Notes: generated by a model not told the origin, from the sequence alone. Positions 60-20,273 are shown, counted from the first letter of the stretch. The stretch is 37,714 nt of DNA from Candidatus Woesearchaeota archaeon (GCA_018302165.1 JAGWAA010000003.1:1-37714); one strand, 5' to 3'. Translations and numbers: made by a program.

Positions 60-743
60 CTAAATTTTTTGTAACCAACCTTTTTTAGGTTCAAAGAAAT
101 CTCCATTCTTTTTCAAAGCATCAACAACTTCCTCAAGTTTTCTTTCTGTAATACCTTTCTCAAAAACTTTTGGTTTCAAATCTTCTTCTATACTAATTGG
201 CCCACCCATTTTCTCTTCGGATAACTGATACAAAATATCTCTTACATCTAAAATCCTTCCTCTGGAAGAAGCACTAATTCCTGTTGTCATCCGATCAATA
301 TCAATTTTTCCAGTCTCAGGATCAATACCAATATCATTCATACATCCTCTTAATAACGCAATTGCACGTAAAGCATCATCTTGATCAACAGTCTGTTTCA
401 ATTTAATTTTAGCAGAAGCTTCAGCTAATCTAACTACTGCTTCTAACTGTCTCGCAGAAATAGGAATTGGTTTAATAGAAGAATCTCCTTCAGTACCAGT
501 TGCACGTAAACTAACATAAAAATTCTTAATTGTTTCAATAGCTTCCTCAGTTAATTTAGGAAAAATTTTCTGTCTAGTATATGCAATATATTTTCTTAAT
601 ATTTTCCCATCAATTTCTGGCGGCAAATCTTTGTAAGCATGCGATTCCAAAACTTTTGACGCAATGTTTGCATCCATTTCTCTATTTGGTAAATCTCTCA
701 TTACAAAAATTAAATCAAATCTATTAATCAACGCAGGAGGCAA
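60..743 (-). CDS. mcm: MCM replicative helicase, C-terminal fragment (arginine-finger region, sensor 2, winged-helix tail). The frame is open upstream to 785 but has no ATG.
   Basis: Translation (GYFDPFTPIPNQID)LPPALINRFDLIFVMRD... matches the MCM block that follows sensor 1 (canonical NLPPxxLSRFDLIF). It is on the same strand as, and contiguous with, the N-terminal MCM ORF, but in another frame. Confidence 0.85.
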   Translation of the reverse strand: MPPALINRFDLIFVMRDLPNREMDANIASKVLESHAYKDLPPEIDGKILRKYIAYTRQKIFPKLTEEAIETIKNFYVSLRATGTEGDSSIKPIPISARQLEAVVRLAEASAKIKLKQTVDQDDALRAIALLRGCMNDIGIDPETGKIDIDRMTTGISASSRGRILDVRDILYQLSEEKMGGPISIEEDLKPKVFEKGITERKLEEVVDALKKNGDFFEPKKGWLQKI

Positions 744-3700
744 ATCAATCTGATTCGGAATCGGTGTAAATGGATCAAAATAGCCTCATGCAGCGCTGAA
801 GTATCTTCTTTAGAAATTTTATCCATTTCATCAAGAACTAAAATTCCTTTGTCTGCTAAAACCATCGCACCTGCTTCTAATGCCCACCCTCTAAGAAATT
901 CATCTTTAACAACAGAACAAGTATTATGTACAAGAACTCCATCAACAACAAAATTATGTGAATCATCAATGGTTAAATCATAAACATAATCATAAGGTGT
1001 ATCAATCATTTCAATATTAACTATCTTCTCCCAAAAGATATCACTCTTAGCAAGAACTTTAATTTCTTTAAAATCAGAACCTTTAACTTTATCAAGAATT
1101 TTCAGTAAACCTTCTCTAGAAAAGTTTTTATGCCAACCAAACTTTCTTAATGAATAATTATTCTTTTGGAGCAAACTTTTTAATCGAACAGAAATTCCTG
1201 GAACAATATCAATATTTGTATCACTCTTTGTTTTAATTTTCAAAAGTTCTTCTAATTTTTTTTTCTTATTCTGATTCCTCAAAGGAATAAACTCATAAAA
1301 TTTTTTAAATTCATCTAAACTTCTTATTTCTAAAATATATTTTTTATGTTTTCCTATAATTTTAGAATTTACAGAAGGATTTCTAATCCTCAAAGAAACA
1401 TGAATATTATATCTCAACAAAACACTCTGAAGCTGTCTTGCAAGTTTTTCAGAACAAGTTGTCAAATCAATACAAGAAGAGCCTTCTCCTTTTTTTCTAA
1501 CATAAACTGAGCCATCTGTATCATATAATCCAGCAATATAATGAGCCAAAAGATTATTTTTCATATGCAACAAATCTTCAGATAAATAAATTTTATTAGA
1601 TTTCGGAGACAAAACTAACCCTAATCCAAAAAGAACTTCTCCAAGAATCTTTGAAGAACACCTTGTTTGTTTAGGTCTCATTTTATTTCCTTCAGTAGAA
1701 TAATAATGTAATCTAAATTGATTCGTTAAGATTTTTTGGAATTCAGAATGTAAATCCTCCAACGAATTTGAAAAACCAATTTCATAAGTAGAATTACTCT
1801 TTCTAATATGACCATCACCTGCAACTAACCCTGCAAGATACAAAACTTCATCATTCAAAACTAATGGAAGACTATGATTTTTTCCATTATATAAACTAAC
1901 CTTAACCACTTTATCATGATAATCTAATCCTACAACATTAGAAATTTTAATCAAATCCCTTAACTTTATATTTCCTCTTGCAAAATCATTAACCCAATGA
2001 TGATATAATTGATTTTCAGAAATTTTCAAATCTTTGCAAGCTTTTCGTAAAGAACCATATTTCTTAACTAACAAATTAGCAATTTCCTTAACAAAAGGTT
2101 TAACATTATGAACAACAGGATTAGAATTAACAAAATCAAGTATATATTTTTTATCTATAACACCACCAATTAAAGTTCTAGGAGTAGCAACATATTCTCC
2201 AACCTTTAACTCATTACTCTTCCTCCAATAAGTAAACCCCTCTTCAATAAAAAAAAGACTTGTATTCCCAGTTAATTCTATTTGCTTGCCACTTGAAAGA
2301 GTAATCTTAAACATTTTTCTTGGAGCCTCAAGTTTCCAAAGAGCATTAGGTTTTTTAGAATGAATTTTTAATTTATTAGACATACTTTGTATTTTCACAT
2401 CTGAAATATTTTCTTCTTTCCAAACTCCCGGTTTAAATTCAATATTATTCACTAATCTTTGTTCAACTAAATCTTGTATTTTAGGCATCCCACCAGGATT
2501 AGTTAATACAAAACTATTCGGACTCACACACAATCCAGCTCCTGACGCAGATCGTCCTGCAACATACCTCGCTTTCGGAGCAGTCTTTTCTACAAAGGTT
2601 AACATCTGACTTTTTCCACAATTATGTGAAACAATCCCATTTGCAATAAACATATGACTTTCAGGGACTTCAAAATCATAAACATCTTTTACTCCAGCAA
2701 AATCAATTGAAACAATTTTCTCCCATTCTTGATAACCTTTCCTTTTTCTTTCTCTTTGATTAATTACTTCTTTAACTTTCAATAAAGCATTATTCTTTTT
2801 TTCAGAAACAAATCCAATATTCTCGATAAATAAATTCATATCAAAAGCTCTGCGTATACATAAATTATCTTCAACTATTCTAGATTGTATCCCAAAATAT
2901 AAAAGCAATAATTGAACATCTCTAAGCAATTCACTATATCTTGATTTCAATTGAATAGAAGTTCTTCCTCTGCCATTACCAAATGCACAACCATCAGCTT
3001 CAAATAACCATTTCAAAAACGATGCAACAACAGATTTAGGACTTTGAAAAATACTTTGTGGTACTTTTTTTTCAGAAAGAAAACTTAAAGATTGAGCAAT
3101 ATGTTTACTATTAGCTTCAATTAAATGAACTTGTTGAGTAGAAATAATTTGCCTTGTACTTCCATCAACATTTTGAATCATACTAATCTTAGGATCTCTT
3201 GAAGAAAAATAAGGCTCTATTTCAAAACAAGTTTTCCATAGATTTGTAATTGGTATAATTAATTCTTTTTCTGCATCACTAACATAACAAGTAATCCTAT
3301 ATCCATTAGGATGCACATTACCATCACCAATAATATATCCATACAATCCTGCAAGTTCAGGAGTAACCTCTTTAGGTAATTTAACATCTTTCAAAAGCCC
3401 ACTACTTTTTTTTACAAAACTAAAATTAGTTTTCACATAATCCTTAACATTATTTTTAATTTCAGGCATAACACGCAATTCTTCTCTTAAAGTAAAACAA
3501 TCCGCTCTCTTCCACCCTTCCTTGCTCAACAATGGATGATCCAAAGTACATATCAATTGCTTTCCAGTTTCAGTAACAACTTTCAAAACCAATTTTTGCT
3601 CATATTTATGAAACTTTTTTGCATAATCAAATCCTTTCTCATTCACACAAGCCAATTTAACATTAATTTTTTCTAAATGCTTCTTCCCTAAATCTTCAAT

Positions 3701-4723
3701 CTTCTTCATTCCAAAATTAGAAGTTGCAACTTGCGAATCCCCAACAATACATCCTGGATCACCAACTAACAATACATGCAAATCTCCTCTAACAATAGTC
3801 TGATCTGCTTTAGTCTTTCTAATTCCACCAAATAACTGTAAAAGAATAGCTTCTTTAATTTTATCATGCCCATAAATCGACGGAGAAATACTTGCAACTA
3901 ATCTCTTATAAATATTTTTATCTTTAGCCAACTTTTTAATTTCAACTTCATCCTCAGGAGTAATATTAATTTCAGTATAATCTTCCTCAACAGGCTCAAC
4001 AAAATTCCCATTAACTCCTAAATCAAATCTTGTTGAAGTCCCACCAGTTTTAGTTGGCACAGGAATTTCAAACATCAATCCATTAACAATTATCCTAGTC
4101 CCTGGTGTCGTTCGCTTCTCCATTTTTGGTTCAACTAAATCTTCTCTTAAAAATATCTGCATTCTTTTAGGTTGTGCCCCACCCTCTAAATTTTCTGGAG
4201 ACTCTTCAATAACAATTCTTTGAACATCTACTAATTCTTTGGATAATAATCTAAACTTTCCTTTCCTTCCACAAGAACATCTTGAAGGTTCTCTAAAATT
4301 TGAATCAACCTGTGGCATTGTAATTGTATTCCCACATGATGGACACTCAAATTTCGCACTTACTGCTTGCGGTCGAACTTCAGAACTCTGCCTAATGATT
4401 CCTTCCATTGCAATAAACTTATTCAGATGCTTACTTCTCAAATTTTTAATATAAATTTCCTGAGACTTAGGCAACCCTTTAAACCTCACTCTAAACCCTT
4501 TCTTAACATCAAACTGCTCTAAAGCCATCTCAGCAGCCTTCAAAGTCTCTTCTGGCTCCTCTAACAACTGGTCAGCTAATTTAGGATCAAATTTCGTCAA
4601 CTCAAAAAAATCTAAAACCAAAAAATTAAGCCCTTTAGACAGATTTTCATGCAATTGCTTCTGATAACTCTGTTCGACAAATTCCTGAAATTTTTCTATT
4701 TGATCAGCTGCATCAATGGTCAT
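728..4723 (-). CDS. mcm: MCM replicative helicase, N-terminal domain plus AAA+ core up to Walker B, interrupted by two inteins. It ends in an out-of-frame tail after ...SALHEA.
   Basis: N-domain Zn ribbon CPSCG..CSCG. Walker A is split as LLVGDPG|intein|CGKSQML. GRSASGAGL|intein|TCSVVKDEF follows, then Walker B ILVLDEMDK. ATGA start/stop overlap with the upstream ORF. Confidence 0.9.
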   Translation of the reverse strand: MTIDAADQIEKFQEFVEQSYQKQLHENLSKGLNFLVLDFFELTKFDPKLADQLLEEPEETLKAAEMALEQFDVKKGFRVRFKGLPKSQEIYIKNLRSKHLNKFIAMEGIIRQSSEVRPQAVSAKFECPSCGNTITMPQVDSNFREPSRCSCGRKGKFRLLSKELVDVQRIVIEESPENLEGGAQPKRMQIFLREDLVEPKMEKRTTPGTRIIVNGLMFEIPVPTKTGGTSTRFDLGVNGNFVEPVEEDYTEINITPEDEVEIKKLAKDKNIYKRLVASISPSIYGHDKIKEAILLQLFGGIRKTKADQTIVRGDLHVLLVGDPGCIVGDSQVATSNFGMKKIEDLGKKHLEKINVKLACVNEKGFDYAKKFHKYEQKLVLKVVTETGKQLICTLDHPLLSKEGWKRADCFTLREELRVMPEIKNNVKDYVKTNFSFVKKSSGLLKDVKLPKEVTPELAGLYGYIIGDGNVHPNGYRITCYVSDAEKELIIPITNLWKTCFEIEPYFSSRDPKISMIQNVDGSTRQIISTQQVHLIEANSKHIAQSLSFLSEKKVPQSIFQSPKSVVASFLKWLFEADGCAFGNGRGRTSIQLKSRYSELLRDVQLLLLYFGIQSRIVEDNLCIRRAFDMNLFIENIGFVSEKKNNALLKVKEVINQRERKRKGYQEWEKIVSIDFAGVKDVYDFEVPESHMFIANGIVSHNCGKSQMLTFVEKTAPKARYVAGRSASGAGLCVSPNSFVLTNPGGMPKIQDLVEQRLVNNIEFKPGVWKEENISDVKIQSMSNKLKIHSKKPNALWKLEAPRKMFKITLSSGKQIELTGNTSLFFIEEGFTYWRKSNELKVGEYVATPRTLIGGVIDKKYILDFVNSNPVVHNVKPFVKEIANLLVKKYGSLRKACKDLKISENQLYHHWVNDFARGNIKLRDLIKISNVVGLDYHDKVVKVSLYNGKNHSLPLVLNDEVLYLAGLVAGDGHIRKSNSTYEIGFSNSLEDLHSEFQKILTNQFRLHYYSTEGNKMRPKQTRCSSKILGEVLFGLGLVLSPKSNKIYLSEDLLHMKNNLLAHYIAGLYDTDGSVYVRKKGEGSSCIDLTTCSEKLARQLQSVLLRYNIHVSLRIRNPSVNSKIIGKHKKYILEIRSLDEFKKFYEFIPLRNQNKKKKLEELLKIKTKSDTNIDIVPGISVRLKSLLQKNNYSLRKFGWHKNFSREGLLKILDKVKGSDFKEIKVLAKSDIFWEKIVNIEMIDTPYDYVYDLTIDDSHNFVVDGVLVHNTCSVVKDEFLRGWALEAGAMVLADKGILVLDEMDKISKEDTSALHEAILIHLHRFRIRLICLLR
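923..2530 (-). mobile_element. Intein 2 in MCM after ...SGAGL, 536 aa, with a LAGLIDADG homing endonuclease domain
   Basis: Starts CVSPNS, LAGLIDADG motifs LYLAGLVAGDGHI and HYIAGLYDTDGSV, ends GVLVHN followed by Thr+1 (TCSVVKDE). The block B position reads LTGNT, so it has no His. The end codon AAT was checked at 923-925. Confidence 0.8.
2621..3751 (-). mobile_element. Intein 1 in the MCM Walker A loop, 377 aa, with a LAGLIDADG homing endonuclease domain
   Basis: Starts CIVGDS (Cys1), block B TLDH, LAGLIDADG motifs LAGLYGYIIGDGNV and FLKWLFEADGCA, ends GIVSHN followed by Cys+1. Removing it restores GDPG-CGKSQ. Coordinates were counted from the ORF translation and checked against the codons at 3749-3751. 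Confidence 0.8.
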
Positions 4724-14165: not shown

Positions 14166-14207
14166 ATTATCTAAAAACTTATAAATAATTTTCTTTTTTA
14201 TTAATTT

Positions 14208-14780
14208 ATGACAGATTCTACAATTTGGACAGAAAAATATCGACCCCAAACTTTTGAGGACATTAAAGGCCAAAAAAAAATAGTTGAAAGAATAAAAGCA
14301 TTTGTAGATCAACGAAATATGCCCCATATTCTTCTTGCTGGACCCGCAGGGGTTGGTAAATCAACAATTGCATTAGTTATAGCAAAAGAACTTTTTAAAG
14401 AAACTTGGAAAAATAATTTTTTAGAATTAAACGCATCTGATGACAGAGGGATTGATGTTGTTAGAAACACAATTAAAGAATTTGCAAAAACAAGAGCTTT
14501 AGGAAATGTTCCATTCAAAATTATTTTCTTAGATGAATGTGACTCTTTAACCAAAGAAGCCCAACAAGCACTTCGTAGGACTATGGAAAACTTTGTTACT
14601 TCTACTAGATTTGTTTTATCCTGTAACTATAGCAGTAAAATAATAGATCCAATTCAAAGTAGATGCACAGTTTTTAGATTCAAACCATTAACAAAAGAAG
14701 ATATTGAAGATTATGTAATGAAAATTGCAACCACAGAAAATCTTAATGTAATATTAGCCATGGTGATGTTAGAAAAATAA
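14208..14780 (+). CDS. rfcS: replication factor C small subunit, N-terminal fragment (frame broken after ...TTENLNV)
   Basis: WTEKYRPQTFEDIKGQ, Walker A LAGPAGVGKS, LELNASDDRGID, Walker B IIFLDECDSL, SRC motif IQSRC. Confidence 0.85.
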   Translation: MTDSTIWTEKYRPQTFEDIKGQKKIVERIKAFVDQRNMPHILLAGPAGVGKSTIALVIAKELFKETWKNNFLELNASDDRGIDVVRNTIKEFAKTRALGNVPFKIIFLDECDSLTKEAQQALRRTMENFVTSTRFVLSCNYSSKIIDPIQSRCTVFRFKPLTKEDIEDYVMKIATTENLNVILAMVMLEK

Positions 14781-15130
14781 CAAACGTCTTACAAAGTTGT
14801 TCTTCAATTGATCACAACATCACTGAAAATTTGGTTTATTCATTAGTTTCCGCGGCAGAACCAAAAGAAATTCAAGATATTTTATTATTAGCAATTAACA
14901 AAAGATTCATCCAATCAAGAGGTTTATTACTAGACACAATGCTTAAACATGGTTTATCAGGTTTAGATATCCTAAAACAAATTCAAAAAGAAACTATGGA
15001 AATAGATTCCATCTCTGATGAAAAAAGAATCGAATTATTAGATAAATGTGGAGAGATAGAATTTAGAATGGTTGAAGGCGCAGATGAATTCATACAACTA
15101 GAAGCATTATTAGCTTACTTTGCAAAATGA
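14762..15130 (+). CDS. rfcS: replication factor C small subunit, C-terminal fragment. It has no start codon of its own. The frame is open from 14747; the ORF track starts at TTG 14831.
   Basis: GDVRKITNVLQS (the GDxRxxxNxLQ sensor-2 motif) ... FRMVEGADEFIQLEALLAYFAK matches the canonical RFC-S C-terminus. Confidence 0.8.
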   Translation, partial: GDVRKITNVLQSCSSIDHNITENLVYSLVSAAEPKEIQDILLLAINKRFIQSRGLLLDTMLKHGLSGLDILKQIQKETMEIDSISDEKRIELLDKCGEIEFRMVEGADEFIQLEALLAYFAK

Positions 15131-15353: not shown

Positions 15354-15467
15354 ATGAATCCTTGGACCAAAAAATATATCCCAAAATTTACCAGAGAAAT
15401 TATTGGACAAGAAGCATCAATAATTAAAATAAAACAATCTCTGAATTTAAAAAAACCTTTCTTTTGA
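15354..15467 (+). CDS. rfcL: replication factor C large subunit, N-terminal 37-codon fragment
   Basis: Hand translation gives MNPWTKKYIPKFTREIIGQEASIIKIKQSLNLKKPFF, stop TGA at 15465-15467. It matches RFC box II (PWxEKYRPxxxxEIxGQ). Confidence 0.65.
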   Translation: MNPWTKKYIPKFTREIIGQEASIIKIKQSLNLKKPFF

Positions 15468-16443
15468 AGTTAATGCTTCTGATACAAGAAACAAAGAAGG
15501 TATTCAAAACCTCCTAGGCAGTTCAATGCAACAACAAAGCCTTTTTTCAAAAGGAAAATTAATATTAGTTGATGATATCGACGCCCTTTCAGGGACCAAA
15601 GATCGTGGAGGTCTAGGTGCAATTGAAGAATTAATCACAAAACCAAAACATCTAACCTTTTTAACTTGCATAGATCCTTGGGAGGATAAATTTTCAAAAC
15701 TCAGAAAAAAATGTATTTTGATAGAATTCCAATCATTAAAAAGAGATTCAATAATTAATCATTTAAAAAAAATATGTGAAGAAGAAAAAGTAAATTATAC
15801 TGAAAAAGACTTACAAGAAATAGCAAAATTAAGCAAAGGCGATTTAAGAGCCGCAATTAATGATCTCCAAGCATTCAGTATCACAAAAACTATTTCAACA
15901 GAGGATAAATCAGAAAGAGATAAAGAAGAAGATTTAATTTTTTGTTTAAGAAAAATTTTAAAAAGTAAAAAATGGAATGAAACCATAAATATTTTTGATA
16001 AAACAAATGAAGATCTAAATGAATGCATGCTATGGTTGGATGAGAATCTCCCAAAAGAATATTCTTCTGAAGATTTAAAAAAAGCTTATGAAAAACTTTC
16101 AAGAGCAGATGTATTTCAAGGTAGAATAAGAAGATGGCAATATTGGAGATATTTAGTTTACATAAATATTCTAATTACCTCAGGCATTGCAATTTCAAAA
16201 AAAGAAACAAATCCTGAAACTCCAGAATATACTAGAACTTCAAGGATATTAAAACTCTGGATGGCAAAAGTTAGAAATGCAAAGAAGAAATCCATTTCAG
16301 AAAAAATTGCAACAGTAACACACACCTCAAAACATCGCGCATTAAAAGATACTTACCCATACTTACGTAAGATTTTACAAAATCCTGAGGTTATAAAAGA
16401 ATTAGAACTAGACGAAGAAGAAATTGAATGGCTTAGGAAGTAA
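15466..16443 (+). CDS. rfcL: replication factor C large subunit, remainder. The frame is open from 15451; the ORF track starts at ATG 15526. Walker A is absent.
   Basis: EVNASDTRNKEGI, Walker B LILVDDIDAL, KGDLRAAINDLQ, LSRADVFQGRIRRWQYW. Confidence 0.8.
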   Translation, partial: EVNASDTRNKEGIQNLLGSSMQQQSLFSKGKLILVDDIDALSGTKDRGGLGAIEELITKPKHLTFLTCIDPWEDKFSKLRKKCILIEFQSLKRDSIINHLKKICEEEKVNYTEKDLQEIAKLSKGDLRAAINDLQAFSITKTISTEDKSERDKEEDLIFCLRKILKSKKWNETINIFDKTNEDLNECMLWLDENLPKEYSSEDLKKAYEKLSRADVFQGRIRRWQYWRYLVYINILITSGIAISKKETNPETPEYTRTSRILKLWMAKVRNAKKKSISEKIATVTHTSKHRALKDTYPYLRKILQNPEVIKELELDEEEIEWLRK

Positions 16444-18861: not shown

Positions 18862-18938
18862 TCTAAATACAAAAAGTTATAAAAAACTTTCCTTTAAGAT
18901 TGAGAAAATTAATAAACAATCATTCCCACATCAAAAGA

Positions 18939-20273
18939 ATGACCTATAATATTATTATCGGAAGAACCGAGTCTGATAGAAAGAAGTTTGGAGAAAAAGG
19001 AACAATTCTCATAGGCCGTTCTTATGTTAAAATGGGCCAAACCACGACCTTATCAAATTATGTTTATATGGATGTAATCAAATCACATGTAGTATTAATT
19101 GTTGGAAAGAGGGGTTCTGGCAAGTCATACTCATCATCAGTCATCACCGAAGGGATTATAGACCTTCCAGATGAAATTTCAAATAATCTTTCTGTAATAA
19201 TGTTAGATACAATGGGCGTTTTCTGGACAATGAAATATCCTAATGAAAAAGATACAGGATTATTAGAACAATGGGGACTGAAAGCAAAAGGATTAGAAAG
19301 AATTAAAATCTTCACACCAATAGGAATGTATGAATATTCCAAATCGATTGGCATTCCAACAGATGCACCATTCTCAATCAAAGCTTCAGAATTATCTGGA
19401 GAAGATTGGCGTCTAGCTTTTGAACTTTCATCTTCTCACCCAGTTTCAATTTTAATTGATAAAATTCTAGGCGATTTAGCAGATTTAAGAAAAGAAGAAT
19501 TTAATGTTGATGATATAATTAATTTAATTCAAAAAGATAATACTTTTTCAAATGAAACAAAAAATGAAGCAATTAATAGATTCAAAGCTTCAAAAGGTTG
19601 GGGTTTATTTTCAAATGAAGGAACAAAAATTGAAGTTCTAATAAATCGTGGAGCAGTTTCAGTTTTAGATATGTCTGCTTACGCAACTTCTTCAGGTGGC
19701 TGGGGAATCAAAGCTCTTGTTGTAGGATTAATATCTAAAAAAATATTTGTTGAAAGAATGCTTTCCAGAAAATTAGATGAAATTGAATCTATCAGAACAG
19801 GTTATTCATATTTCAAAATCAAAGAAGAAGTTTCAGAGGATAAAAAACCATTAATTTGGTTTATTTTAGATGAAGCTCATGAATTACTTCCTGCAATCGG
19901 AAAAACTGCAGCAACAGACGCTTTGGTAACAATATTAAGAGAAGGTCGTCAACCTGGAATTTCATTATTATTAATTACTCAACAACCAGGAAAGATTCAT
20001 TCAGATGTTTTAACACAATCAGATATAGTCCTTGCACATAGACTAACAGCAAAAATAGATGTTGAAGCTTTCAACTCCATGATGCAATCATATTTAGGAG
20101 ACACCTTAACAAGTTACTTGAACATCCTTCCAGCAGATCCAGGAGCAGCAATTGTTTTAGATGATAACTCAGAAAGATTATATCCTATTCAAGTTCGTCC
20201 AAAAGTATCCTGGCACGGAGGAGAATCCCCTACTGCAATCAAATTCGAGAGGTCAAAGAATTTAGGATTGTAA
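18939..20273 (+). CDS. HerA/DUF87-family P-loop ATPase
   Basis: N-terminal barrel-like segment, Walker A VGKRGSGKSYS, Walker B IWFILDEAHELLP, REGRQPGISLLLITQQP. Start set to ATG 18939; the ORF track begins at TTG 18900. Confidence 0.7.
   Translation: MTYNIIIGRTESDRKKFGEKGTILIGRSYVKMGQTTTLSNYVYMDVIKSHVVLIVGKRGSGKSYSSSVITEGIIDLPDEISNNLSVIMLDTMGVFWTMKYPNEKDTGLLEQWGLKAKGLERIKIFTPIGMYEYSKSIGIPTDAPFSIKASELSGEDWRLAFELSSSHPVSILIDKILGDLADLRKEEFNVDDIINLIQKDNTFSNETKNEAINRFKASKGWGLFSNEGTKIEVLINRGAVSVLDMSAYATSSGGWGIKALVVGLISKKIFVERMLSRKLDEIESIRTGYSYFKIKEEVSEDKKPLIWFILDEAHELLPAIGKTAATDALVTILREGRQPGISLLLITQQPGKIHSDVLTQSDIVLAHRLTAKIDVEAFNSMMQSYLGDTLTSYLNILPADPGAAIVLDDNSERLYPIQVRPKVSWHGGESPTAIKFERSKNLGL

Follow-up and report, generated by a model that had tools for sequence, protein, structure and literature searches.

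The stretch of DNA analysed here, referred to below as the window, is 37,714 nt long and makes up the whole of contig C61 in an 82%-complete bin (664,625 bases in 63 contigs) of a Candidatus Woesearchaeota archaeon. On its minus strand it carries an mcm gene, in which an N-terminal domain is followed by an OB fold with zinc finger, an AAA+ core split by two inteins, a lid and a winged helix. The features of this gene, as deposited, are:

60..4723, minus strand: mcm gene, with matches to MCM_N, MCM_OB, MCM, Intein_splicing, LAGLIDADG_3, MCM_lid and MCM_WH_arc, two inteins, and a reading frame broken at 779|780
728..4723, minus strand: N-terminal ORF of mcm, its last in-frame residues being ...DTSALHEA
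2621..3751, minus strand: intein 1, 377 aa, between GDPG and CGKSQ of the P-loop; starts with Cys, ends with His-Asn, +1 residue Cys; LAGLIDADG endonuclease
923..2530, minus strand: intein 2, 536 aa, between SGAGL and TCSVV; starts with Cys, ends with His-Asn, +1 residue Thr; LAGLIDADG endonuclease
782..922, minus strand: third extein piece, 47 aa, with Walker B (DEMDK), ending in HEA; Pfam MCM positions 98-144/145
780..857, minus strand: stretch of mixed lineage adjoining the junction, its letters compared with the Logan contigs of four runs
779..780, minus strand: junction, very probably false, with 97 nt missing between its two letters; the missing block reads MEQQHISVAKANIQATLRTQTSILAAANPKMGR in the intact protein P0122
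728..781, minus strand: out-of-frame tail of the N-terminal ORF, 17 residues (ILIHLHRFRIRLICLLR), with the stop at 728-730
60..779, minus strand: C-terminal part of mcm, 239 aa and a stop, with the end of the AAA+ core including RFDL (presumed arginine-finger motif), lid and winged helix; 100% identical to P0122 and P0121

The traits of an MCM protein that are present include the N-terminal domain (MCM_N, 38.7 bits), an OB fold with zinc-finger cysteines (MCM_OB, 83 bits), the AAA+ lid (MCM_lid, 96.3 bits) and the archaeal winged helix, for which MCM_WH_arc gave 21.2 bits, under its cut-off of 26.1. Walker A consists of GDPG and CGKSQ with intein 1 between them, Walker B is DEMDK, and positions 2-68, 68-99 and 98-145 of the Pfam MCM profile (PF00493) are matched. 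The C-terminal piece matches positions 174-224 and contains ALINRFDLIF, which we take to be the arginine finger. Both inteins lie in frame within a conserved motif of the host protein, start with Cys, end with His-Asn and possess both domains, matching Intein_splicing (145.5 bits) and LAGLIDADG_3 (126.3 bits). Intein 2 is absent from the three closest relatives (G001, G006 and G013), where SGAGLT(C/A)SVV is continuous.

In translation, the N-terminal frame runs to ...DEMDKISKEDTSALHEA and then into 17 unrelated residues and a stop, while a second frame on the same strand opens at 785 and continues ...FDPFTPIPNQIDLPPALINRFDLIF into the lid and the winged helix. The original prediction placed a frame break exactly at the block of the pre-sensor-1 (PS1) hairpin and sensor 1, and this was borne out: the frames part at 779|780, and the profile alignment that had been proposed as a check places both halves, the N-terminal extein reaching position 144/145 of PF00493 and the C-terminal piece starting from 174/176 of 224. 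About 30 profile positions (~145-175), those of the PS1 hairpin and sensor 1, are unmatched between them. The block is indeed absent from the deposited DNA, but its size had been put at about 31 codons; codon comparison with the three closest relatives, of which G001 has an MCM protein 90% identical to that of the window, gives exactly 97 nt. This is 2 nt short of 33 codons (MEQQ...NPKMGR) and consists of the G of a Met codon plus 32 codons. The supposed GYFD motif overlapping the HEA codons did not hold up. The relatives have GRFD, true homology restarts at F-D (window 779 downward), and the "G-Y" is a coincidence, namely GAG GCT AT of H-E-A-M read out of frame. A GGCTAT repeat at the junction, considered as a candidate, was discarded because it depended on taking GYFD as genuine, and a microhomology-mediated deletion was likewise rejected, as the bases flanking the lost piece have no repeat in common. 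The tail at 728..781 is a non-coding by-product of the missing 97 nt.

When a relative is aligned with the Sulfolobus MCM chain 4fdg_B, the lysine of AKAG and the asparagine of AAGNP fall inside the missing block; we take these to be the PS1-hairpin and sensor-1 residues, K430 and N448. They are absent from the deposited contig, and present in P0122, P0121 and a contig of run X7 (see below). A search of the bin with PF00493 found the four pieces of the window gene and no second mcm, so that this gene is the only one found in the bin. Neither the missing block nor the third intein described below was found on other contigs of the bin (blastn; tblastn gave chance matches only, with E values of at least 0.83), the smallest of which has at least 5,021 bases, so that a short orphan contig would be outside the bin.

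Intact forms of the gene exist in independent assemblies. P0122, a protein of 1586 aa from ENA assemblies (a cluster of 12 sequences), is identical to the window at 1312 of the 1314 residues up to HEA (residues 1-1314) and at all 239 residues after the break, with a block of 33 residues between the two halves; its length is exactly 1314 + 33 + 239. The spliced MCM predicted from these pieces would have 324 + 30 + 47 + 33 + 239 = 673 aa, and intein-free relatives have 671–679 aa. P0121, a partial sequence of 703 aa from JGI, also has the block and agrees with P0122 over its length. When public metagenome contigs were searched with the 34 bases adjoining the junction, one contig was found (L017), with 97.5% DNA identity to the window on both flanks and the block present in an intein-split form: it reads HEA-MEQQHISVAKANIQA, an insertion of 341 aa, then TLRTQTSILAAANPKMGR-FDPF, the block being divided into 43 nt, a 1023-nt intein and 54 nt. 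Both kinds of longer allele that the original prediction proposed to look for thus exist, one longer by 97 nt (P0122 and the X7 contig) and an intein-bearing one longer by 97 + 1023 nt (L017).

Public runs give a concordant picture. Among the 20 runs listed as containing the stretch 400-1400, the best contains 0.95 of the sampled words, which fits the loss of the words that cross the junction together with nearby SNPs. Logan contigs were compared over 300-1300 for four of these runs (X1, X2, X7 and X8), which belong to four studies and may exclude the source sample of the contig; all of these data are assembled contigs, which drop rare variants. Among the pieces listed, a direct join of 779 to 780 was found in none of the four runs. 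In X7, a single contig of 728 nt aligns with 300-779, without a differing letter, and with 780-922; the two aligned parts are exactly 97 letters apart. The contigs of X1, X2 and X8 end at 779 and at 780, with loose ends that run into the missing block: reverse-complemented, the loose ends behind 779 are codons for ...LAAANPKMGR and those before 780 are codons for (M)EQQHISVAKA. X1 and X8 have two contigs of 118 nt, with 30 letters on 750-779 and 88 loose letters, as well as a long one that extends 39 loose letters beyond 780 into the block. If such pieces overlap by 30 letters, as the use of 31-letter words suggests, their lengths would again give 88 + 39 - 30 = 97. The two 118-nt contigs represent two alleles of the block. 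The difference presumably lies in the letter directly behind 779, as the Arg codon is AGG in the loose ends and AGA in L017.

The letters next to the junction appear to derive from more than one lineage. At 812 the window has A and the main contigs of all four runs have G; at 827 it has T where the main contigs of three of the four runs have C. Pieces in X2 that carry the window's letters belong to a second lineage, which departs from the window before 795: its contig matches window 795-826 and then reads TTA CAC GAG GCG ATG GAA CAA CAG CAA, so that its codons across HEA are those of G006. Window 780-794, however, follows the main lineage. With second-lineage letters at 812 and 827 and main-lineage letters at 780-794, the window contig is a mosaic beside the junction. 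A 47-nt word that L017 and the sister species G006 share exactly contains the 779 edge; for the 780 edge, no long exact match between species was found among the relatives tested.

On this contig, mcm is not the only gene with an out-of-frame loss. Window 9039-37712 is rich in genes of information processing, with a TBP, a class I tRNA synthetase, the small and large subunits of RFC, FtsJ and Trm5 methyltransferases, a FEN1/XPG nuclease, a family B DNA polymerase and a Cdc48-type AAA ATPase. A tRNA scan of the window found no tRNA genes, and the best-named relatives of its proteins are archaea of the Woesearchaeota/Nanoarchaeota type. Both RFC subunits are affected:

14205..14780 and 14747..15130, plus strand: RFC small subunit (rfcS) in two ORFs, with 28 nt missing at about 14750-14760, relative to G006 only
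15354-16443, plus strand: RFC large subunit (rfcL), with 74 nt missing at 15461-15463 relative to G006, amounting to 25 residues including the P-loop

With the syntenic G006 contig as reference, the loss in rfcS removes the residues just before the GDVRK box, and it is probably an assembly loss of the same type as that in mcm. For rfcL, an intact counterpart of 387 aa (P0001, from 20 JGI, Logan and ENA contigs) has the 25 residues that the window lacks, including the P-loop GPTGTGKT, and is 100% identical to the window protein over 99% of the C-terminal fragment, and at 36 of 37 residues over the N-terminal one. For the truncated protein itself (P0005), the contig of the window is the sole known source. 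Two of the three broken genes (mcm and rfcL) therefore have intact, near-identical counterparts in other assemblies.

The G006 genome has peculiarities of its own. Its mcm (locus L007, on G006:C44) is also broken as deposited, by losses, relative to the window, of 14 nt and 16 nt in intein 1 at positions corresponding to window 2821 and 3147; there are stops between the two losses, and identity to the window is patchy (67–100% per 60 nt). A further loss of 43 nt occurs at window 13334. These three losses may be artefacts of the same class in a sister genome. A HerA/DUF87-like ATPase gene, uninterrupted in the window (18900-20273, plus strand), has a counterpart in G006 (C44:23844-27184) that is longer by about 1.25 kb at window 19123 and by about 1.34 kb at window 19875. 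The additional sequences are probably two inteins, in which case the genus would have a further polymorphism in intein presence or absence. The RFC small-subunit gene of G001 (C16:8584-10497) has about 1.9 kb extra at window ~14615-14622, which is probably also an intein, absent from the window.

The missing block occurs in independent assemblies, and none of the listed contigs of four runs has the window's junction. We therefore favour, with high confidence, a local misassembly of the deposited contig as the cause of the frame break, and do not regard the broken helicase as a real feature. Since the near-identical forms P0122, P0121 and the X7 contig have the PS1-hairpin and sensor-1 residues, it is the assembly that fails here and not the organism. 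The original prediction had stated that the only mcm in the window could not, as written, encode an active helicase, which is correct for the contig but unsupported as biology. It had also allowed that finding the block in the population would point to an artefact, and the block is there, in Logan contigs of all four runs, in P0122 and P0121, and in L017. The real gene would encode an MCM precursor of 1586 aa with two inteins, to be spliced to about 673 aa with PS1 hairpin and sensor 1 intact. As to the way in which the assembler or scaffolder lost the 97 nt, we infer that they were dropped between 779 and 780 where the assembly graph was tangled. The tangle may have arisen from the two SNP alleles of the block, from a near-identical lineage with a 1023-nt third intein inside it, from the co-occurring sister species, and from exact words common to different species.

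A minority deletion allele in the source population is, on the whole, improbable. In its simplest form, one lineage of the source would have lost 97 nt of mcm, the resulting pseudogene being transient or complemented by intact copies or cells. The deposited contig does show the deletion, no second mcm was found in the bin, and contigs cannot prove a rare variant absent; we nevertheless regard this as quite unlikely. MCM is the essential replicative helicase, the 779/780 join occurs in none of the four runs among the pieces listed, near-identical intact forms are known from ENA and JGI assemblies, and the join has no microhomology, which speaks against a biological origin by replication slippage. 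The losses in rfcS and rfcL weigh in the same direction, as they would bring the number of lethal lesions to three, and assembly accounts far more easily than biology for so many out-of-frame breaks in replication genes within a single contig of 37.7 kb. Alternatively, a third intein of 1023 nt, carried by an ancestor at ANIQA/T, could have been lost imprecisely, taking 43 and 54 nt of flanking extein with it. An intein inside the missing block does occur in L017 (97.5% identical) as well as in G008, G009, G019 and G021, but all of the arguments against a real deletion apply here too and, in addition, the X7 contig (with the same flanks) and P0122 are intein-free forms with the block, so that the nearest intact allele needs no intein. 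We consider such an event very improbable. There is a slender chance that the 97-nt loss, perhaps by imprecise excision of a hairpin intein, is a real allele at appreciable frequency in an archaeon with a very small genome, which intact copies in the carrier cell itself or in cells nearby would keep alive; the losses in rfcS and rfcL would in that case be signs of a lineage whose genomes are defective in replication. Finally, it is extremely unlikely that the two ORFs represent a functional split or recoded mcm. Apart from the two open frames nothing speaks for it, the residues that it would lack include the counterparts of the lysine of AKAG and the asparagine of AAGNP in 4fdg_B, and the block is found nowhere else in the bin. 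No frameshift could restore codons that the DNA does not contain, and this explanation is therefore ruled out.

At the population level, some forms of mcm carry a third intein within the PS1 hairpin and others lack it. The inteins found here in other loci are:

L017:3924-4946: third intein, 341 aa, at ANIQA/T inside the PS1 hairpin; LAGLIDADG-type; absent from the window
L011:1229-1771 and L013:2042-2569: mini-inteins of G005 and G024 at MEQQ/S, 13 residues upstream of ANIQA/T; start with Ser, end with His-Asn before Ser

The third intein starts with Cys, ends with Gly-Asn before Thr (the penultimate residue is Gly and not His) and contains two LAGLIDADG-like motifs. Its residues 1-71 match the NCBIfam model TIGR01445 for the N-terminal splicing region with 29.3 bits (cut-off 24.5), and this region, the terminal Asn with a following nucleophile and the insertion in a conserved motif identify it as an intein. 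No Pfam family matched it at E <= 0.1, and a sequence search of the PDB returned nothing significant, searches with the single protein and with a 5-sequence profile reaching an intein only at E values of 0.11–0.14. Twelve loci were surveyed for these sites (11 relatives and L017), of which L009 gave no row, leaving 11. The third intein occupies ANIQA/T in five of them (G008, G009, G019, G021 and L017), a mini-intein of 176–181 aa occupies MEQQ/S in two (G005 and G024), and four (G001, G003, G006 and G013) have neither. The MCM PS1 hairpin is thus an intein hot spot in this archaeal family, with two sites 13 residues apart, and its occupancy varies between lineages that are 97.5% identical.

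Five intein sites (a–e) are distinguished in archaeal MCM (Novikova et al. 2015), site c being located "right before" the PS1 hairpin (PMC4760082), and four sites, MCM-a to MCM-d, in haloarchaeal MCM (PMC10643990). The present gene resembles the multi-intein archaeal MCMs in that the presence of inteins varies among close relatives (PMC4760082, PMC10643990). It differs from the haloarchaeal case as described there in that MCM-a is situated after the Walker A lysine and intein 1 of the window before the GKS residues (PMC10643990). The sites GDPG/C, SGAGL/T, MEQQ/S and ANIQA/T are named here by their flanking residues and not by published site letters.

For the biology of the organism the result would mean that its mcm is ordinary, intact and intein-rich. 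For data quality it means that a public genome contains clean, N-free, out-of-frame deletions of 28–97 nt that hit the most conserved motifs of three replication genes; such deletions would be annotated as pseudogenes, and could pass for genome decay in an archaeon with a small genome.

Local misassemblies in metagenome-assembled genomes (MAGs) arise at strain variants and at repeats between genomes. The present case is like these in that a highly conserved gene has lost a short segment, at a site where lineages found together have exact words in common and are distinguished by SNPs or by a mobile insertion, and in that independent re-assemblies contradict the deposited contig. It is unlike the usual MAG misassembly in its clean, N-free join, which resembles a genuine frameshift deletion, and in its recurrence in three AAA+ replication genes of one contig. 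With a genuine mcm pseudogene it has in common an out-of-frame internal deletion that removes catalytic motifs, but, unlike such a pseudogene, it is supported by no independent assembly of the same organism.
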